Positions 3,196 through 39,581 of a stretch of 40,067 nt of DNA are shown here, piece by piece (the first letter of the stretch is position 1; every line of letters starts with the position of its first letter). Below the pieces are notes generated by a model. That model worked only from the letters and a program-made list of their open reading frames with translations. It searched no databases and was not told the origin of the DNA. This DNA comes from an uncultured Ignavibacteriales bacterium (lineage in GTDB: Bacteria; Zixibacteria; MSB-5A5; GN15; FEB-12): contig CAZLBP010000016.1 in the NCBI GenBank assembly GCA_964557855.1, forward strand, positions 41,703 to 81,769, in the 5' to 3' direction. Both the position numbers and the translations under genes were made by a program.

Positions 3196-3924
3196 TTAGC
3201 GCCCCACCGCGAGCCGGTCGATTAACAGCTCGGGCAGCTCGGCGGCTGTCATTTTCTTCTGCGCGGCGGCAATGTCGTACTCCACGCGATGAAAGCGGAT
3301 TGCCCTGGTATTCAAATCCATGGTTACGAAGCAAGCACGCGGATCATTATCGCGCGGCTGTCCCACCGAACCGACATTGACCAGGTAACGGCTTTCTTCA
3401 AAGGGATCGAAATCATGGGCGGTCTTTCGCTTGGGACGTGTGCCCGGTACTTCCGAGAAAATCTGGGGTATGTGAGTGTGACCATGAAAGCATATGGCGC
3501 CGGTCATATGTTCGAAGGCGATGTCGGCTTCGTCTGCGGTCAGTATGTAGTGCCAGTTTTCCGGTTCGAAGGGGGAGGCATGCACGAAAGTGATATCACC
3601 GAGCTCATGCACCATTTCGTACCGAGCGATCGTGGACAACTCCTGATCTGACAGAGACTCCCGAGTCCACTCGGCGGCAATACGGGCGACATTCGTATAG
3701 CCGCTCGTGGCCTCCAGGCCCAGGACAACCGATTCATGGTTGCCCATGAGTTTGACGGCGGCGTGTTTTTCGATCAGCTCCAGACAGGCGTGAGGATCAC
3801 ATCCATATCCGACGACGTCTCCGAGGCAATAGATTTCATCGACGCCGCTTTCTTCCACCGCGCGCAAAACGGCGGTCAAGGCTTCCTGATTCCCGTGGAT
3901 GTCAGAGAGCAAGGCTATTTTCAT
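3196..3924 (-). CDS. metallophosphoesterase (calcineurin-like/YfcE-type phosphodiesterase/phosphatase)
   Basis: MKIALLSDIHGN...LGDVVGYG...GNHE...GHTH motifs of the calcineurin-like metallophosphoesterase fold. Translationally coupled between the FHA gene and the kinase gene. Confidence 0.85.
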   Translation of the reverse strand: MKIALLSDIHGNQEALTAVLRAVEESGVDEIYCLGDVVGYGCDPHACLELIEKHAAVKLMGNHESVVLGLEATSGYTNVARIAAEWTRESLSDQELSTIARYEMVHELGDITFVHASPFEPENWHYILTADEADIAFEHMTGAICFHGHTHIPQIFSEVPGTRPKRKTAHDFDPFEESRYLVNVGSVGQPRDNDPRACFVTMDLNTRAIRFHRVEYDIAAAQKKMTAAELPELLIDRLAVGR

Positions 3925-4635
3925 CTATTCTCTGCCTTCAACATACTTGTATGTACTTTTGCCGACCGTAATGAGATCATCGTTTTTCAGCGTGCAGCGA
4001 TCAACCTGTTCACCATTGACTTTGACCTTGCCTTTCTTGCCCAAGTTTACCAATTGGTGGCCGCCGTTCTCTTTGACGATCTTGGCCTGGATGCCGGATA
4101 TGAAGAACCCTTTGGCGCGCACGTGAACGAACTTGGCCTTACCCAGGGTCGTCACGTCTCTTTCCAGGCGGTATTCGGAGAAGTCGGCGTTCTCTTCTCC
4201 CAGCAGTACGGAGCCGCCATACCGTTGTACAATCTCTCGTTCTATCTTGTCGTTTTCAAGAAGTTTTTTCTGAGCTTTCGTGTTCAGCACCATCGTGCCG
4301 TCGAAATTCGACGCATCTTCCTCAATCTGATCCGAGTTAGCGTTGTAGATGAGTTGGTACTTCCCGATGGTAATGGTGTCGTGGTTACGCAGGACTTCTT
4401 CATTGATTTTGCGTTGATTGACGAACGTGCCGTTGAGTGACTCGTTGTCAATGACGACGGCGGCATTGTCGTTGAATTCGATCAAGGCATGTTTTCGCGA
4501 AACACCGCGATTTTCGAGGACAATATCGTTGTCATTGGTACGTCCGATCGTGATCCGTTTCTTTTCCGTCACGATTCGTTCGATTACCTTGTTGTCGTAT
4601 TTGACAGTTATTTCCGCCATGGGGAATCCTTTCAC
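3925..4635 (-). CDS. tandem FHA-domain protein
   Basis: First FHA: ITIGRTNDNDIVLENRGVSRKHALIEF...NGTFVN. A second, degenerate FHA-like repeat lies in the C-terminal half. AAGGA RBS. First gene of the FHA-phosphoesterase-kinase operon. Confidence 0.85.
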   Translation of the reverse strand: MKGFPMAEITVKYDNKVIERIVTEKKRITIGRTNDNDIVLENRGVSRKHALIEFNDNAAVVIDNESLNGTFVNQRKINEEVLRNHDTITIGKYQLIYNANSDQIEEDASNFDGTMVLNTKAQKKLLENDKIEREIVQRYGGSVLLGEENADFSEYRLERDVTTLGKAKFVHVRAKGFFISGIQAKIVKENGGHQLVNLGKKGKVKVNGEQVDRCTLKNDDLITVGKSTYKYVEGRE

Positions 4636-7803: not shown

Positions 7804-8931
7804 ATGTCACTGCTAATTGAGGTAATCGAATGGATGGATCCCAGCGGTCAGGAGATGATCCACCGAATCCCGGAACAGGGTTCAGCCGATTTCAAGCTGG
7901 GAGCACAGCTCATCGTTCGTGACAGCCAGATGGCGATCTTCTTCAAAGACGGCCACGCGGCCGACCAGTTCAGCACCGGACGGCATACCCTTTCGACACT
8001 CAACGTACCGATCCTGACGCGACTGCTGGCTTTCCCCTTCGGCTTCAATTCCCCGTTTCGCGCCGAAGTGTATTTCATCAATCAGAAGGTATTTACCGAC
8101 TTGAAGTGGGGGACCAAACATCCGGTTACGTTTCGAGACAGTCAGTTCGGATTGATCAGACTGCGAGGTCATGGGGCTTACACCATGAAGATCGTTCAGC
8201 CGAGTCTCTTCATCAATTCCATCGTCGGCCGCCAGTCACGGTACACTACCACGGATATTCAGGACTACTTGCGCGACGTCATCATCGCCCGGATGAACGA
8301 TCTCCTGGGAGAACAGCTCGACACTATGCTGAATCTGCCCGCGCAGTATACGGAATTGTCCGAACAGTTCAAGGAAATCGTTCGAACCGAGTTCGACAAG
8401 TACGGTCTGGAACTGGTCGATTTTTATATTTCATCGATAACGCCGCCCGAAGAAGTGTCCCGGATGATAGACCAGCGTTCGGGCATGGAAGCAATCGGTG
8501 ATCTGGACAAGTTCATGAAATTCGGTATGGCCCGCGGCCTGGGCTCGGCCGGAGGCGCCGGTGCGGCCGGAGCCGGGGTCGGCATGGCGGCCGGCGTGGG
8601 CGTGATGATGCCGGGCCTGATGCAGAAAGTGTTTGCCCCGGATCAAACCGAACTCAAACGTGAGCCGGTGCCCACCGTCACCTGCCCCAAATGTCATACC
8701 GACACTCCGGAACAGTCGCGATTTTGTTATCGCTGCGGACATCAGATGGTCCTGATGAACACGTGCCAGGCCTGCAATGCCCAATTAGCGCCCGAAGCCA
8801 CGTTCTGTTCGAATTGCGGGTTGAAACTCGATGCCAAGGTGCAATGTCCTCACTGTCACGCCGAGCTGATACCGGGTTCCAAGTTCTGTGGTGAGTGTGG
8901 AAAACCGATCAATGAGCCGGACGCCGAATAG
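7804..8931 (+). CDS. SPFH/Band-7-like (Band_7_1, COG4260-type) protein with Gly/Ala-rich linker and four C-terminal CxxC zinc-ribbon motifs
   Basis: The N-terminal ~230 aa resemble the SPFH 'Band_7_1' family, which characteristically precedes zinc ribbons. The C-terminus carries CPKC...CYRCG, CQAC...CSNCG and CPHC...CGECG pairs (double zinc ribbons). GGAGAG RBS. Confidence 0.7.
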
Positions 8932-10345
8932 CAAGAGCGGCTTCTACATTGACGTCGGGTGTCCGGGGTGCGGCGGCCGGCTCGAGCTGGAAGAGAACTT
9001 CTTTGTTCTGCCGTGCCGTTACTGCGGTTCCATCCTCAGAATCCGAATGCCCGATTCTCCTCCCGCCTATCTGGTTAAGAGCAAGGTCGACAGATTCAAG
9101 GTCCGCTTTGGCATTGATCGCTATTTGAAAGAGCAGAATCAACCTCTGACCGATTCCGGTACACAATTCAAACAGATATATTATCCCTATTGGAAGATCC
9201 GGGTGATCCTCCTGAAGACCCGTAATCGCATCGAGACCGTTGAGCACGACAATAATGAGTATGGTTCCTATGGCTCCTGCGAATATGGGTCTACCGGAGG
9301 CAGCAGAACGGTTGAAACGAGAAAGACCGAAATATCACTTTCGCCGGCGGAATTCACGTTTCCGGCCGGGGCCGAATTGGCCGGCGTGCCGAGTTCGCTG
9401 GGCAGACGTGTCGAGTACCTGCACGCAGTACCGTTCGGAATTGAAGAAGTAGAAAGTGATTTTCATTCTTTGCCGGTAGGGATATCATGGGAGTCAGTCC
9501 AAAAACGACTTGAGAAATCGATTCGATCTGTCGGCATGCTGGATAACGCTGATTTCGGACGCAACCGGACCGAGTTTTTCTATCCGGTCGGCTCCATAGT
9601 CTACTTCCCCTATGTAATTGCTGAGTCCTACGGGACCGGGTCAGTTCGTCGGTGGATAGTCGACGGCGTTACGGGAAGAGTAGTAAACGGAATGGATCAC
9701 CGTCTCAAAGAAACCGCCGGTCCCCTGCCGGACAACGCCGCCGTCGCATGCGGACAACTTCAAGTGGAGCATCACCGGTGCGGCAATTGTGGGTATGATT
9801 TGCCGGAACGGCAATCGTACATCTATCTCTGTCGACACTGTCACCAACTCATTACCATGGAAGACAGTCCCTGCCTGCAGTCCGAACTCAGAATCACGTC
9901 GAATCGCGGGAATCACGAGGACCGGCTAGTGCCGTTTTGGGTCATTCGGTTTGAGTACGATATCATTCAGTTGTCCGGCAGTTCGCTCGGAAGCTCAACC
10001 AACAGCAATCGGTTGGTCTTACCGGCGTTTCGACTGCGGAATTTCGAATCGGCCTACCGTCTCTCGAGACGCATTTCTTCCGCTCTCGACAAGCTCGACC
10101 TTGAGGATCTGATTCAGCCGGATAGTCGATTAAGCCCGGTGGATATTGGTCCGTCCGAGGCCCTGATTATGGCCGAAGTAGTCTGCGCTCGAGACCGGAT
10201 GAACGTGTCAACTTCTCTTGACTTACCTTCTTTCAAGGATGCGGTGAAGGAGATGAGCATCGCCTATGTGCCCTTCCATCCGGAGCACTACTTCAATGTT
10301 GATTCAGTCCTGGGAGCAGTGACGTTCGAAAAGAGCGCAGGCTGA
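8912..10345 (+). CDS. zinc-ribbon-containing hypothetical protein (two CxxC...CxxC ribbons), translationally coupled to the SPFH gene
   Basis: CPGCGG...CRYCGS near the N-terminus and CGNCGYD...CRHCHQ mid-protein. The start overlaps the upstream stop by ~20 nt. The ATG at 8912 is preferred over 8888. Confidence 0.6.
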
Positions 10346-10443
10346 GAGTTCTTATTAATACCCGGGGTGCAACTCTCCCTTCGGTGGTCGCCCACCGCTC
10401 CGGAGGCTGTTTCATAAGTAGTAAATCGGCGTTGAGGCTTGTC

Positions 10444-10554
10444 GACTGTGCCCTCCACGCGTAGGGTGCAGCCTTGCGCCGCACGGACTTACCGGATCGG
10501 CGGGGACGAGCCCCGCCTCTACGCGACACGAAAGTTGAACGAATATCACGTTTT
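10444..10554 (+). repeat. conserved ~110-nt structured repeat, copy A (candidate ncRNA or MITE core); inverted copy at 38246..38356
   Basis: About 85% identity to the reverse complement of 38246..38356. Contains the hairpins gtgcagc-cttgc-gccgcac and ggcgggg-acgag-ccccgcc. Weaker similarity extends ~80 nt further upstream. Confidence 0.6.
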
Positions 10555-10863
10555 GCGACAGCCTCCCCCTTCCTGACCGCTTGGACCGTCCTGAGATTGA
10601 GGGTAATGCTGTTAACAAGAGTTGTTCCATCTTCCGGCGACCGGGAACTTTGTCTGCAAATCGTTGTCTAACAGGTAACCTAAGGAGACCTGTCGCGAAA
10701 AATCTTGCTATCGATTAAAGATTTGTCTATGTTCGGACGATGATTGAGGCCGGGTTGTCCTCGGATCCCGGCTGTCTGAGGCACTGTTGCTGAACAAAAC
10801 GGTGGCCGTGGCTATAAAGACAAAAGCAGAAGCCACGGTCGGTTTTCTGAATCGGAGTAAGAT

Positions 10864-16807: not shown

Positions 16808-16996
16808 CACCCTGATACTGAGCTTCGGGTATAGCCCATCCCCCCCTCATTAAACTTGCCCCCATTTAATCCCTGTACTATGCTGAGCTGGTCGTTGCCG
16901 TCAGGTGAGGTCACCTGACGGCACACAGAGGGGCAGATGTGGACAACTGCCGCGCGCGAGGATGGACCCCTGCCTTCGCAGGGGTGACAAGAACAA

Positions 16997-17046
16997 TGTC
17001 ATTCCCGCGCAAGCGGGAATCCAGTCAGGACCAGATGGATCCTGAC
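16997..17046. repeat. REP-like double-hairpin element copy 3
   Basis: tgtcattcccgcgcaagcgggaatccagtcaggaccagatggatcctgac has the same two-hairpin architecture as 1..53 and 57..108. Confidence 0.8.
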
Positions 17047-35385: not shown

Positions 35386-36159
35386 TCATGTATTTCGGTG
35401 CGTTGGTTTCTTGCGATAGCGGTAGATCACGTACACGACAATGAGGAACACCGCCACCGCCGGGATAATCCAGGTCGTGACGGAACCATTGCGAGCTTCT
35501 TCCCGCAGCGCTTCATTGATATCAGCAACTTCCACTTCTTCTGTGGGGAGAACATTATCTACGTTGCCGTAGGTGAAGGTTTCGATGACCTGGTTCATAA
35601 TGTCTTTGCTCACCGCGAACAGGGAATCGGGGGAATAGAAATAGAAGGAGGCCAGTCCCTGTTCGAAGAACTTCATCATGAGCAGGTGTTTCTTGGTGAC
35701 TTCCACCCCATCGCTGATTTCGCTCATAACGGTAGCGAGTTTGCGCTCACTGTCGTAAACCGGGGTGTTGGATTCGAGGTTTGCCATAAAATCGGCTACC
35801 GGATAATACTTGATACCTTCGCCGAACGATTGTCTGAGCGTATTGAGCGTCGAATCGATTTCGTGTTGTGTGAAGGCGTCGCTGGAATCGACGGTGAGTA
35901 TGAAGTACGGTCCCCGGTAGAACGGCACCGACCCTTCTTTGTAAAAGCCGGCTTCGTAGTCGAATAAAAGATCACCGGCGCCTCGCTGTTCGAGGAAAAC
36001 GTCGAGCAGCAGGTAATCCAGTTGCTCCCAGTCGGGCGGGTAGCTGAAGTAGAAGTTGCCTTTTAGGCTGACATAGTAGTTGGTGCTGTCCGAGGCAAAG
36101 GCGGAGACGGCCAAAAGCAGGATCAACAGGATTGTGCAACAGGTGCTTTTCATGATCAT
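35386..36159 (-). CDS. membrane-anchored exported protein of unknown function (signal peptide plus C-terminal TM anchor)
   Basis: N-terminal signal peptide (LLILLLAVSAFASDS) and a C-terminal TM followed by a basic tail (IIPAVAVFLIVVYVIYRYRKKP). 4-nt overlap with the upstream MutL-like gene. Confidence 0.6.
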   Translation of the reverse strand: MIMKSTCCTILLILLLAVSAFASDSTNYYVSLKGNFYFSYPPDWEQLDYLLLDVFLEQRGAGDLLFDYEAGFYKEGSVPFYRGPYFILTVDSSDAFTQHEIDSTLNTLRQSFGEGIKYYPVADFMANLESNTPVYDSERKLATVMSEISDGVEVTKKHLLMMKFFEQGLASFYFYSPDSLFAVSKDIMNQVIETFTYGNVDNVLPTEEVEVADINEALREEARNGSVTTWIIPAVAVFLIVVYVIYRYRKKPTHRNT

Positions 36160-38012
36160 CCGAAGAGTCGTTCCTTGGGATAGATGTCCAGATTCGTCAT
36201 CCAGGTTTTCAGGTGGGAGACCCGCTCGTCTTCAGAGAGCGTCGACAGATCGAACGGCCGCCCGCGACCGTCGAGAATTATGCCCACCACTCCTCCGTGC
36301 AGGGTTGTTTCGAGCTTGTTGCCCTTACCGGCGCCGACGTCGAACTGACGTTCCGGTTCGAGAACCGCTTTAACCTTGAGCGGCAAGCCGTCATCACCCA
36401 CGCCGAGTTCGTATTTCTTCATCTCCAGGCTGTTCAATGTTCCGGTGACCTGACCATCGGGCAAATCAATTCGGTATTTCATGATGGGTCCCGGTTTCTT
36501 GATCGTCCCGGAGGGGGCGACACAGGTGCCCAGATGAATGAGGCAGTCTTTTTCGAAGACCTCTGTAGCGGCTTTGGCTTGCACCTCGGTCAACACACCC
36601 AGCTGCGGCATCATGAAAATGGAGTCCACGGCGAGGCGAGTGACACCCTCGGGCAGGAAGGCATCGATCAACATCATGGCGGATTGCTGCCGGCGGGGTG
36701 CGTGCGAGAGCACTCCACCCGAGCCGATCAGCATATTGAGCGACATCATATTTACAATTGTAGCGCCGGAGCCGGATTGCTCGAACGCTTCGGCGATAGT
36801 GCGCTGTTGCTGGATGCCCTTCAACACAGTGGCGAAATTCTTGTGCTGAATGAAAGCCAGCCGCAGAGCCTCCTTGGCGATAGCCTGTTCGAAAATCAGT
36901 TCTTCCATCGATTGCGGAATCGTGGTCGGGCGGATCATCTTGTTCTTGACCCGATTGCGCAGATCCCTTTCGTCCATTTTGAACGGCGCCCAGCGCATGA
37001 CCATTGGCAGGGTAGCTTCCGCGAACACATTGGAAATGGAGTACGACATACCGAGGTTGGCGGAGACGGTACGGTTGAATACACCCTCGCCGCCGCCGGG
37101 ACGAAACACGGAAAACACATCGGTCGTCGCCCCGCCGATATCGACTCCGACCGCTTCGATATTGTACTGGTCGGCAATGGTCTTGATAATGAGTCCCACG
37201 GCGCCCGGGGTGGGCATGATGGGGGCGTCGGCCCAGGACATGAGCTTGTTGTACCCGGGTGCTTGCGCCATAACGTGTTCCATGAATAGTTCGTGTATTT
37301 CCTCACGGGCCGGGGCCAGGTTCTCTCGCTCGAGAATCGGTCGCAGGTTTTCAACCGTTTTCAGGTCGACTTTCTTGGCCAGTGTTTGATCGATATTCTG
37401 ACGAGCATTCTTGTTGCCGGCATAGATGACGGGCAGTTTGTAGGATGACCCCAGCCGGGGGCGGGGATCAGCGGCTGCGATCAATTCCGCCAGTTCGACC
37501 ACGTGCGTAGTCGTGCCGCCGTCAATGCCGCCGGAGAGAAGGATCATATCCGGGCGGAGATGCCGGATGCGCTCGATTTGCTGGTGCGGTTGGCGTTTGT
37601 CGTTGGAGGCGATGACGTCCATGACAATCGCACCGGCGCCCAGCGCGGCGCGCTCGGCCGATTCGGCCGTCATGGACCGCACCACCCCAGCCACCATCAT
37701 CTGCAGGCCGCCGCCGGCCGACGAGGTAGATATGAACACATCGGTTCCGGTTTTTCCGTTGGACGGATTGATGATCTTATTCTCTTCGTCCAGCAGCTTT
37801 CTCCCCGACAGCTCTTCCACTTCCTGAACGGCATTGAGCACACCCATCGTCACGTCTTCAAACGGGGCTTCAACCGTGGTCGGAGCCTCGCCGCGTGTGA
37901 TGAGGCGGTACTCGCCGTTGACATACTCGATCAGGATGGCCTTGGTCGTAGTGGAACCACAGTCGGTCGCCAGAATAACTTTAATATCTTTGGGGTTATC
38001 GAATTTTGCCAT
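36156..38012 (-). CDS. MutL(GlmL)/EutA-like ASKHA-fold ATPase (mutase-reactivase family homolog), 618 aa
   Basis: N-terminal phosphate-1 motif ILATDCGSTTTKAIL and internal VGVDIGGATTDVFSV match the paired motifs of the GlmL/MutL-EutA family (compare EutA GIDLGTTTTQ / IDIGGGT). It is ~150 aa longer than typical MutL. Confidence 0.5.
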   Translation of the reverse strand: MAKFDNPKDIKVILATDCGSTTTKAILIEYVNGEYRLITRGEAPTTVEAPFEDVTMGVLNAVQEVEELSGRKLLDEENKIINPSNGKTGTDVFISTSSAGGGLQMMVAGVVRSMTAESAERAALGAGAIVMDVIASNDKRQPHQQIERIRHLRPDMILLSGGIDGGTTTHVVELAELIAAADPRPRLGSSYKLPVIYAGNKNARQNIDQTLAKKVDLKTVENLRPILERENLAPAREEIHELFMEHVMAQAPGYNKLMSWADAPIMPTPGAVGLIIKTIADQYNIEAVGVDIGGATTDVFSVFRPGGGEGVFNRTVSANLGMSYSISNVFAEATLPMVMRWAPFKMDERDLRNRVKNKMIRPTTIPQSMEELIFEQAIAKEALRLAFIQHKNFATVLKGIQQQRTIAEAFEQSGSGATIVNMMSLNMLIGSGGVLSHAPRRQQSAMMLIDAFLPEGVTRLAVDSIFMMPQLGVLTEVQAKAATEVFEKDCLIHLGTCVAPSGTIKKPGPIMKYRIDLPDGQVTGTLNSLEMKKYELGVGDDGLPLKVKAVLEPERQFDVGAGKGNKLETTLHGGVVGIILDGRGRPFDLSTLSEDERVSHLKTWMTNLDIYPKERLFG

Positions 38013-38245
38013 GTATCCAACCTGTTATCTTGCAACAGACCTTTCTTCAAAATCGGAAACTCGTTTGTTCTGAAGCCCGACGCTTATCCGCCTGATAAAA
38101 TAGACTTCAGCTTATTTCTTCCCGGGCGGATTTCCGCCAAGACCGCAAGTATAATAACTCCGTTCGGAATTGTAAACAGGGATTTTTCAGGCGAAACAGC
38201 CCGATTTTGCTGCCGATGCGCCGTCAAGAATCCCGAGGCGGTCCC

Positions 38246-38356
38246 AAAAGGTGATATTCGGTCAACTTTCGTGTCGCGTAGAGGCGGGGCTCGTCCCAGC
38301 GGATCCGGCAAGTTGCTGCGGCGCCAGGCCGCACCCAGGGCGGGGAGGGCGCAGTC
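38246..38356 (-). repeat. conserved ~110-nt structured repeat, copy B (inverted relative to copy A at 10444..10554)
   Basis: The reverse complement aligns with copy A (gggacgagccccgcctctacgcgacacgaaagttga[a/c]cgaatatcac identical). The stem ugcggc-cuggc-gccgca corresponds to the copy-A stem with a compensatory A-to-G change. Confidence 0.6.
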
Positions 38357-38528
38357 AGTAGATGGGAACCTCCGTGGTTCCGACAGTCAATTCTTCACCT
38401 CACACCGTACCCTCTCCTTCGCAAAGAGAGGGGCGCCCGCAGGGCGGGGTGAGGATGGATCGGGTTTCGACATCATCTGCTCATTGACATCGCCGGTCCA
38501 AAGCGGTATACATAACACGGCAACGACC

Positions 38529-39581
38529 ATGACAGATAAGAGAAATGACATATCGATTAAGCTGACCGCCGAAGTCAGCTGCGCCGGTTGAGCCTCGAAA
38601 CTGGCGCCAAAGGTTTTGGCGGAAGCGCTCAAAGGATTGCCGGTCACGGCGCACCCGCAACTTCTGGTCGGCTACAACACGGCCGACGATGCGGGGGTGT
38701 TTCAGATCGCCGATGATCTGGCGCTGGTGCAGACGGTGGACTTTTTCCCGCCGATAGTGGATGATCCATACTATTTCGGGCAGATCGCGGCGGCCAATGC
38801 CATGTCCGACGTATATGCCATGGGCGGGCGGCCGCTGACTGCGCTCAATATCGTCTGCTTCCCGGGCAACATGCCGCCGGAGATTCTTACGGAAGTCCTG
38901 AAGGGCGGCGCGAAGAAGGTCGAAGAGGCCGGGGCGTTTGTGGTCGGGGGACACTCGGTCAAGGACAAGGAGCTTAAGTACGGCATTTCCGTGACGGGGA
39001 TAGTCCATCCTGACCGGATATTCACAAATGCCGGGGCGCGGCCGGGCCATATCCTCTATCTCACCAAACCGCTCGGCACGGGGCTGATAACGACCGGGAT
39101 CAAGCGCAATGCGGTCGGCGATGAATTGATTCGCCTGGTGACGGTCCAGATGACACAATTGAACAAGAACGCCGCCGAAGCGATGGTCAAATGCGGGGCG
39201 CACGCCGCGACTGATATAACCGGCTACGGGCTGCTGGGGCATGCTTTTGAGATGGCGGAAGCATCGGGGGTGACGATCCGCTTCGAGGCCGACCTAATAC
39301 CACTGATGCCTCAGGCGACGGAACTGGCGGCGGCGGGGATGATCCCCGGCGGGGCGAATGCCAACCGGGATTTTCTCGAGGGGCACATCCGGATAGCATC
39401 TTCGGTGGACAAAAATGTCGAGCATGTATTATACGATCCGCAAACATCGGGCGGCCTGCTGATCGCCATCCCCGAAGAGCGAGCGGAGCAGCTTGAGCGC
39501 GAGTTCGCGGAGAAAAAGGTATTCGGGCAGCGGGTGGGGGTGGTGCAGGAAGAATCGGGCGTGGGGATTGTGGTGGGGTGA
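38529..39581 (+). CDS. selD: selenide, water dikinase (selenophosphate synthetase) SelD, predicted selenoprotein with in-frame UGA (Sec) at 38592..38594
   Basis: After the TGA the ORF is clear SelD (VGYNTADDAGVF, DFFPPIVDDPYYFGQIAAANAMSDVYAMGG, AIR-synthase-like fold). In frame upstream, an ATG at 38529 gives MTDKRNDISIKLTAEVSCAG-U-ASKLAPKVLAEAL. This aligns with E. coli SelD [25 protein letters not shown] and places the TGA at the catalytic Cys17 position. Confidence 0.8.
38595..38630 (+). promoter_or_regulatory. candidate bacterial SECIS stem-loop immediately 3' of the selD UGA
   Basis: 13 nt after the TGA lies cgccaaa-GGU-uuuggcg, a 7-bp stem with an apical GGU. This is consistent with the position and loop G/U requirement of bacterial SECIS elements. 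Confidence 0.45.

Follow-up and report, generated by a model that had tools for sequence, protein, structure and literature searches.

Repetitive extragenic palindromic (REP) sequences of the GTAG type combine a GTAG tag with a stem of 6-13 bp, show complementary stem variants and G·T pairs, form head-to-head heterodimers and flank the genes of REP-associated tyrosine transposases (RAYTs) (PMC3733652). Some REPs sit inside small palindromes, and "REPtrons" have been described (Di Nocera, De Gregorio & Rocco 2013, PMC3733652). For binding and cleavage, the E. coli transposase TnpA-REP requires, on single-stranded DNA, a hairpin whose 5' GTAG is intact; both activities are lost when any of these four bases is mutated (PMC3479197). 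Here, we analyzed two copies of a repeated element in a 40,067-nt stretch of DNA (hereafter the window) from an uncultured bacterium of the Zixibacteria (contig CAZLBP010000016.1). An initial annotation had described this pair as a candidate novel noncoding RNA (ncRNA) or miniature inverted-repeat transposable element (MITE). Our results indicate that each copy is very probably a decayed head-to-head heterodimer of GTAG-tagged REPs, resembling the REP doublets forming hairpins (REPINs) of other bacteria and belonging to a family of non-autonomous selfish repeats of Zixibacteria. This is no new RNA gene, and elements of this kind are well known in other bacteria.

Anatomy of the two copies

A repeat search of the window identified a long inverted repeat with arms of 137 nt (10444-10580 and 38220-38356; 83% complementary). 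The identity of about 85% first reported for the two inverted copies was reproduced (86% without gaps over 122 positions, 10444-10565 vs 38356-38235), and the gene positions confirm that both copies are intergenic. Using a hidden Markov model (HMM) of the family described below and alignment to family members, copy A was delimited to 132 nt on the plus strand (10434-10565). Copy B covers 138 nt on the minus strand (38235-38372), and the two are 82% identical with gaps when the termini are included. The repeat ends at 10565, about 10 nt to the right of the limit initially proposed. On the left, the weaker similarity said to continue for about 80 nt upstream was not supported: the extension from 10444 amounts to only ~10-30 nt and ends at the left terminal repeat GAGGCT… at 10434, or possibly at 10403.

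Each copy contains two units, Y and X, whose tags face outward. In copy A, the motif CGCGTAG (10458-10464, plus strand; GTAG tag at 10461-10464) precedes hairpin Y (10466-10484, plus strand), the "first hairpin" of the initial annotation, which reads GTGCAGC-CTTGC-GCCGCAC and forms 7 bp including one A·C mismatch. Hairpin X follows after 14 nt (10499-10517, plus strand) with a perfect 7-bp stem, GGCGGGG-ACGAG-CCCCGCC, which reads GTAG-A-GGCGGGG-CTCGT-CCCCGCC on the minus strand. The GTAG tag of this unit is carried by the minus strand (10519-10525), where CGCGTAG corresponds to CTACGCG on the plus strand (CTAC at 10519-10522). The left terminal repeat (GAGGCTTGTCGA; 10434-10445, plus strand) is degenerate, and the right terminal repeat is CGTTTTGCGACAGCCTC (10549-10565, plus strand; family consensus ACTTTTGGGACAGCCTC). 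The family HMM gave a better match for the left terminus at 10403-10422 (plus strand; GAGGCTGTTTCATAAGTAGT, family consensus GAGGCTGTCCCACAAGTGGT); copy A may thus span 10403-10565 with an internal insertion or a partial duplication.

Copy B presents the same arrangement on the minus strand, except that the tag of unit Y has degenerated to CGCCCTG (38336-38342, minus strand) in place of CGCGTAG, with GTAG replaced by CCTG. Its hairpin Y (38316-38334, minus strand; GTGCGGC-CTGGC-GCCGCAG) forms 6 bp plus a terminal G·G, and its hairpin X (38283-38301, minus strand; CGCTGGG-ACGAG-CCCCGCC) contains T·C and C·C mismatches. The tag of unit X is found on the plus strand (38275-38281), reading CGCGTAG there and CTACGCG on the minus strand (CTAC at 38281-38278). 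The left terminal repeat, GAGGTTCCCATC (38361-38372, minus strand), is degenerate, and the right one is CCTTTTGGGACCGCCTC (38235-38251, minus strand). As inverted pairs, the terminal repeats are degenerate in both copies (GAGGCTTGTCGA / GCGACAGCCTC in A and GAGGTTCCCATC / GGGACCGCCTC in B). No target-site duplication was observed at either copy, with flanks CGTT/CCCC for A and CACG/GGGA for B.

Overall, the four window hairpins present 6-7-bp stems and 5-nt loops (CTTGC, CTGGC and ACGAG, the last reading CTCGT on the tag strand). The GTAG tag is kept in three of the four units, and three of the four stems contain mismatches, only hairpin X of copy A being perfect. The A/G difference noted initially in the first hairpin does exist, since GTGCAGC/GCCGCAC in copy A carries an A·C mismatch that is absent from GTGCGGC/GCCGCAG in copy B, but the change is one-sided and creates no compensatory pair. 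The second hairpin shows the reverse pattern, being perfect in copy A (GGCGGGG/CCCCGCC) and carrying a T·C mismatch in copy B (CGCTGGG/CCCCGCC). Given these opposite patterns, the two window copies alone carry no compensatory substitution.

The two copies share a 36-nt core (GGGACGAGCCCCGCCTCTACGCGACACGAAAGTTGA) without a single difference (10503-10538 and 38297-38262), whereas the chance expectation in shuffled sequences is zero. It is longer than expected from the overall divergence of the copies, although only mildly (P ~0.03). This core corresponds to the X hairpin with its GTAG tag, the best-conserved part of the whole mobile family, and its conservation fits selection by the transposase or gene conversion and not a host function.

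A dispersed repeat family in Zixibacteria

We searched a profile of the two window copies against 1.38 Mb of Zixibacteria loci and found partial relatives in two of them (L025, E=1.7e-7; L016, E=2e-3). These copies occupy non-orthologous intergenic sites and have in common the motif GGCGG(G/A)GAC(G/A)AGCCCCGCC(T/G)CTACGCG. When allowing up to four mismatches, the core pattern was found at only four sites in 1.4 Mb of Zixibacteria loci and the window, all of them intergenic and non-orthologous. A degenerate pattern (GACRAGCCCCGCCNCTACGCG) matched at least 120 metagenome stretches, with several stretches on some contigs (up to four or more; e.g., five contigs of assembly ERZ795048). No match to copy A was detected in phage and plasmid collections.

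Read in register, the copies reveal a recurrent composite of 122 nt: GAGGCTGTCCCACAAGTGGTGTGGACC-CGCGTAG-GTGGCGGC-CTTGT-GTCGCCAC-AAGCCTTTGCGCTG-GGCGGAG-ACAAG-CCCCGCC-C-CTACGCG-ACTCTGTCGACTTTTGGGACAGCCTC. Its layout is the one seen in the window, CGCGTAG-Y and X-CTACGCG separated by 14 nt, and its two halves are inverted homologues, in each of which a terminal arm is followed by CGCGTAG and a GC hairpin. The family HMM was built from five 122-nt metagenome copies, with the window sequence excluded. Copy A was matched over the full model (positions 1-122, corresponding to 10403-10565) with E=4.4e-9, and copy B between model positions 37 and 121 with E=5.4e-4; in the collected loci, the HMM returned 100 matches. 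The window copies are 80-82% identical to the family consensus and contain ~14 extra nt in the right spacer.

Full-length members are bounded by 12-16-nt terminal inverted repeats (GAGGCTGTCCCA…TGGGACAGCCTC). Intact members are flanked by 4-bp direct duplications, which are perfect in 8/18 cases and match at three of four positions in 6/18, against 1/72 in shifted controls. The typical location of these intact composites is within the 4-nt loops of a second family of palindromes, GGCAGATG-TCCA-CATCTGCC, for which we identified 17 solo sites and five filled junctions. This second family carries a GTGG tag and flanks one of the RAYT genes described below (L120). Intact composites with duplications, nested in palindrome loops, were observed in L127 (7590-7735), L145, L153, L133, L140, L182 and others. 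In another locus, L177, an IS3-family insertion sequence (IS) (3223-4352; OrfB with rve and HTH_21 domains) interrupts the Y hairpin of a 165-nt family member precisely at its CTTG loop and is bordered by GGCTTG on each side.

Hairpin units covary and are strand-specific

On the tag-bearing strand, a unit is composed of GTAG, 0-1 nt, an 8-bp GC stem with the loop CTTGT, and the complementary arm. We counted 319 such units in the DNA of the loci, with constant tag and loop and variable stems. To guard against circularity, the units used for covariation were picked solely by the anchors GTAG-N8-CTTGT-N8, which yielded 71 distinct sequences, some of them chance matches. In this set, 80.5% of the cells were paired, compared with 57.6% after shuffling and 43-60% (about 50%) when the partner was slid, and two-sided changes were observed at 8/8 stem pairs. 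The stems therefore do covary, and the initial statement that conservation operates at the structural level is true of the family, but this could not be demonstrated by the single A-to-G change that separates the window copies. REPs, which form hairpins in single-stranded DNA, are likewise expected to show such covariation. At pair 11-19, moreover, G·T predominates on the GTAG strand; the other strand would have C·A there, which indicates that the hairpin is strand-specific.

RAYT genes flanked by the repeats

Three open reading frames (ORFs) in the loci (L136, L155 and L120) carry HUH and Y motifs and match the Pfam family PF01797 (Y1_Tnp). Against the NCBIfam model NF047646 ("REP-associated tyrosine transposase"), all three score 88.7-106 bits, above its curated cut-off of 80, and they fail the IS200 model. 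The RAYT gene of L136 has X and Y units on both sides, including two tandem doublets. A Y unit extends over the 3' end of the L155 gene, and an X unit lies 150 nt beyond. A protein identical to that of L136 is recorded at NCBI for a metagenome-assembled genome (MAG) of Zixibacteria, and a homolog with 66% identity has been named RayT by JGI. The gene in L120 (3314-3939) reaches 106 bits on NF047646 and has inverted GTGGGC-GGCAGATGTCCACATCTGCC palindromes on its flanks. Gene and palindromes make up a second REP/RAYT pair ("REPtron") for this group of organisms, in which the tag is GTGG and not GTAG.

Gene context and orthologous sites

Copy A is located in a 518-nt intergenic region between the gene of a 485-aa protein, which ends at 10345 and 58-88 nt before the copy, and the gene of an 869-aa secreted beta-propeller-like protein, which precedes those of PorV- and PorP/SprF-like proteins. 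The neighbors of copy B are the divergent glutamate mutase L (mutL) operon (36156-38012, minus strand) and a ThiL-like gene of the aminoimidazole ribonucleotide (AIR) synthase family (38616-39581). Both copies present the same orientation relative to the downstream operon, and both are followed by a sigma-70-like promoter. The promoter of the operon encoding the type IX secretion system (T9SS) cargo, PorV and PorP (TTGCTA-17-TATGTT; 10705-10733, plus strand) is 140 nt downstream of copy A. The promoter of the mutL operon (TTTACA-17-TATACT; 38148-38176, minus strand) is 59 nt downstream of copy B, which places copy B outside the mutL leader.

Homologs of MutL place the source organism in the Zixibacteria. 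The corresponding regions of related genomes lack the element. The upstream regions of mutL in six relatives (L001, L009-L013) keep the promoter without the element. Only one relative, L216, shares the gene order around copy A (SPFH, 478 aa, 869 aa, PorV). Its intergenic region measures 306 nt, compared with 518 nt for the window; the promoter block CTTGCTA-17-TATGTT is retained, and ~200 nt including the element are absent. These relatives are distant (56% identity of the 485-aa protein for L216 and 88-90% protein identity for the mutL loci), so that exact insertion boundaries cannot be read from them. None of the 213 loci shares the ThiL-mutL junction of the window. Two independent Logan assemblies of the same organism end inside the core of copy A, as expected for an exact repeat.

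Upstream of mutL, a divergent-promoter motif common to the relatives (GAATCTAT-N-AAGTCAAGCGAAAA) is missing from the window, where the upstream neighbor is the ThiL-like gene and not the DUF6754 genes. A MAFFT alignment of the right part of the element to this motif (GAATCTAT…AAGTCAAGCGAAAA) was judged forced because the -35-like hexamer is on the opposite strand. On the other side of the window, the 485-aa ORF (8888-10345) follows an SPFH/zinc-ribbon protein and probably starts at 8912 (477 aa). The protein has no Pfam domain and 179 homologs, and is conserved across Zixibacteria. Its closest non-self homolog is only 56% identical, so that no close sequenced relative of the source lineage exists.

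Proposed origin of the window copies

The element is organized as a terminal repeat, CGC-GTAG, hairpin Y, a 14-nt spacer, hairpin X, CTAC-GCG, a spacer and an inverted terminal repeat. By analogy with E. coli TnpA-REP, each hairpin with its 5' GTAG would constitute, on single-stranded DNA, the recognition module of a RAYT (HUH/Y1) encoded elsewhere in the genome, and this transposase could spread or maintain the elements in trans. The two copies would have inserted independently into two intergenic regions and since diverged to ~82% identity, with a shared orientation relative to the downstream operon that might be due to chance or weak selection. They appear to have lost the features associated with mobility (GTAG changed to CCTG in unit Y of copy B, mismatches in three of the four hairpins, and no remaining target-site duplication), which makes them most likely immobile. 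The window copies are probably old, the relics of two independent insertions, and their present role may be incidental, one possibility being a putative 3' hairpin for the transcript of the 485-aa gene.

Several observations weigh against this interpretation. The two hairpins of the dimer differ in sequence, so that, unlike classical Pseudomonas REPINs, the element does not form one long hairpin. The terminal inverted repeats and 4-bp duplications of intact members are not expected from the single-strand mechanism of Y1/HUH enzymes, and the window copies themselves have degenerate termini and no duplication. No RAYT gene or other Y1_Tnp ORF is present in the 40-kb window, the cognate transposase being seen only in related contigs. 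Finally, an exact 24-mer of the core had no match in the genome-contig and metagenome-contig collections, which suggests that the window's own subfamily may be low-copy, with two copies seen.

Alternative explanations

One reading, to which we give a small chance, holds that the intact 122-nt composite goes beyond a simple REP dimer. Two RAYT-type GTAG hairpins between inverted GAGGCTGTCCCA termini would insert into the 4-nt loops of GTGGGC-GGCAGATG-TCCA-CATCTGCC palindromes, the second REP family with its own RAYT, and duplicate the loop, either as a REPIN variant with RAYT-driven 4-bp duplication or as a hybrid relying on a different transposase. As a distinct possibility, the window copies may have been co-opted as upstream elements of the two operons. 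If true, a RAYT-duplicating or hybrid composite would represent a transposition outcome not described for HUH/Y1 enzymes.

It is improbable that the ~122-nt composite is a conventional MITE, that is, a deletion derivative of a DDE-type insertion sequence whose mobilization would rely on the terminal inverted repeats (GAGGCTGTCCCA…TGGGACAGCCTC) and a staggered cut of 4 bp, the GTAG hairpins being passengers. The 12-16-nt terminal inverted repeats of full-length members, the excess of 4-bp duplications over the shifted controls and the occurrence of the target palindromes in both solo and filled form are all consistent with this scenario. However, these terminal repeats are the outer ends of two inverted homologous halves that each end in CGCGTAG and a hairpin, as in head-to-head REP dimers, and X and Y units occur around the RAYT genes without these termini. 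REP dimers within small palindromes have also been described before (PMC3733652). In 2.3 Mb of loci, a limited search space, we found no longer transposase-encoding element with these termini (terminus pairs 400-6000 nt apart). The sole transposase between such a pair belongs to the IS3-family element of L177, which has its own ends and is itself inserted in a hairpin loop. The window copies, moreover, lack the duplication.

A structured ncRNA is very unlikely, whether as a pair of paralogous small RNA genes or as a cis-regulatory leader shared by the two downstream operons. The common orientation of the copies relative to the downstream operon would agree with such a role, as would the covariation and strand-specific G·T pair conserved at the family level, features read in the literature as a sign that many GTAG REPs may function as RNA (PMC3733652); copy A, just downstream of a gene, could also be co-transcribed with it. 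On the other hand, the Rfam search proposed initially returned no family at the gathering score in the whole window and none for the element at E up to 10, with only chance-level scores (E >=0.4) between 10300 and 10900. Whichever strand of either copy was folded, the minimum free energy was no better than that of dinucleotide shuffles (z from -0.03 to -0.92), and copy B did not reproduce the multibranch structure predicted for copy A. A scan found no promoter-like or terminator-like site belonging to the element. Because the copies are upstream of the conserved sigma-70-type promoters, and at differing distances (140 and 59 nt), they are not in the leaders of the downstream operons. The element is also missing from the orthologous sites of relatives, and no compensatory change separates the copies, each hairpin being better formed in one copy and mismatched in the other. 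Thus, of the two possibilities first raised, the mobile repeat was close to correct, since the pair belongs to a dispersed family of non-autonomous palindromic repeats, and the novel ncRNA is left unsupported by the absence of an Rfam match, fold z-scores near zero, a fold not kept between copies, empty orthologous sites and a position upstream of promoters. A scan for tRNA and tmRNA genes found none.

Least probable of all is a DNA-level function, in which the copies would be an operator or upstream activating sequence shared by the T9SS-cargo and glutamate mutase L operons, or inverted repeats serving to invert the 27.6-kb segment between them. Their position upstream of promoters in the same relative orientation and the length of the identical core (P ~0.03) are compatible with a regulatory site, but the distances to the promoters are unequal, relatives that keep these promoters lack the element, and the part most conserved here (X hairpin and GTAG) is also the most conserved part of the entire mobile family. 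For an inversion, the copies are indeed inverted relative to each other, but the intervening segment is ordinary housekeeping chromosome. Undoing the inversion did not recover the gene order of the relatives, in which the upstream neighbors of mutL are divergent DUF6754 genes.

Other candidates were rejected. Three forward frames are open in both copies, but the differences between them (N/T, V/L, R/G and Q/P) are all non-synonymous and without 3-nt periodicity, which rules against a small coding sequence. Neither a scan nor inspection by eye revealed a convincing conserved match to a sigma-70, sigma-54, extracytoplasmic function (ECF) or Bacteroidetes-type promoter inside the element. A template/variable repeat (TR/VR) pair of a diversity-generating retroelement does not fit the sequence, with mismatches beyond adenines and no reverse transcriptase.

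Other palindromic repeats in the window

Additional repeats were observed in the window. Directly upstream of copy B, a nested palindrome (38396-38452, minus strand) reads CCTCACCCCGCC…CCCCTCTC-TTTGCGAAG-GAGAGGG…GGTGTGAGG. It has no second copy in the DNA of the analysis (the window and the collected loci) and may be another REP-like relic. A second double-hairpin family, TGTC-ATTCCCGC-GAAG-GCGGGAAT-CCA-GTCAGGACC-GAAG-GTCCTGAC, is represented by three window copies (1-48, 56-103 and 16997-17044), the first two in tandem at the window start. Its first hairpin recurs in ~10 other Zixibacteria or metagenome loci. Since the Logan contig L214 starts at window position 1, this repeat breaks assemblies as well. 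The third copy closes a palindrome cluster (16897-17046) resembling the bacterial interspersed mosaic elements (BIMEs), between isocitrate/isopropylmalate dehydrogenase and amino-acid permease genes. It is preceded there by GTCAGGTGAGGTCACCTGAC (16900-16919) and GGCAGATGTGGACAACTGCC (16932-16951). The latter belongs, in degenerate form, to the family of GTGG-tagged 8-4-8 palindromes bordering the L120 RAYT gene.

Significance and comparison with known systems

For the window, these results remove a candidate "novel ncRNA" and explain the inverted repeat pair as two relics of selfish repeats. More broadly, they document GTAG-tagged REP dimers and cognate RAYT genes in Zixibacteria, an uncultured phylum of the Fibrobacteres-Chlorobi-Bacteroidetes (FCB) group outside the published surveys that we consulted; we found no published link between Zixibacteria and REPs in the literature searched. 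These repeats break metagenome assemblies, as seen from the Logan contigs that end in them, and are therefore of practical interest for MAG quality. To our knowledge, the insertion step of REPINs has never been reconstituted; intact members, with their 4-bp duplications and their nesting in targeted loops, could shed light on it.

Elements of the IS1397/ISKpn1 and ISPpu9/10 types are known to insert into REPs (for ISPpu9, PMC8450116). The IS3-family element in the CTTG loop of the Y hairpin of L177 offers a parallel in the locus of a relative, not in the window, and does not explain the repeat itself.

The subterminal hairpins of IS200/IS605 elements and the REPs bound by E. coli TnpA-REP (Messing et al. 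2012, PMC3479197) resemble our units in combining a hairpin and a 5' tetranucleotide on one strand with an HUH/Y1 enzyme, and the strand-specific G·T pair of the Zixibacteria family fits such recognition of single-stranded DNA. Unlike IS200/IS605, however, the Zixibacteria element contains no transposase, and the chemistry of IS200/IS605 and TnpA-REP produces no target-site duplication, whereas intact Zixibacteria members show 4-bp duplications.

The REPINs of Pseudomonas fluorescens SBW25 are likewise non-autonomous and go with a single-copy RAYT that has copies of the repeat on its flanks (Bertels & Rainey 2011, PMC3116915; PMC3337134); for the Zixibacteria family, repeats flanking a RAYT gene were seen in related contigs. 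In classical REPINs, two near-identical REPs can pair into one long hairpin; here, Y and X differ, and only the outer arms and CGCGTAG are complementary. A further difference is that the mobility of the Zixibacteria family is putative.

A close match is found with the GTAG REPs, which include the REP/BIME sequences of E. coli and the SMAG repeats of Stenotrophomonas (PMC3733652). The phyla listed for GTAG repeats in that survey do not include Zixibacteria. Most described loops are 2-4 nt long, compared with the conserved 5-nt CTTGT of the Zixibacteria family, and the Zixibacteria composite has additional conserved arms of ~25 nt, ending in GAGGCTGTCCCA inverted repeats, as well as 4-bp duplications. 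Both present an unpaired GTAG at the foot of a 7-8-bp GC-rich stem, and sub-families with complementary stem variants and frequent G·T pairs. Both form head-to-head dimers in which a conserved spacer separates the units and GTAG lies at the outer ends, including heterodimers with different stems. Both are extragenic, dispersed and multi-copy, lie in some cases within small palindromes, are targeted by insertion sequences, and flank RAYT genes, for the Zixibacteria family in contigs related to the window.

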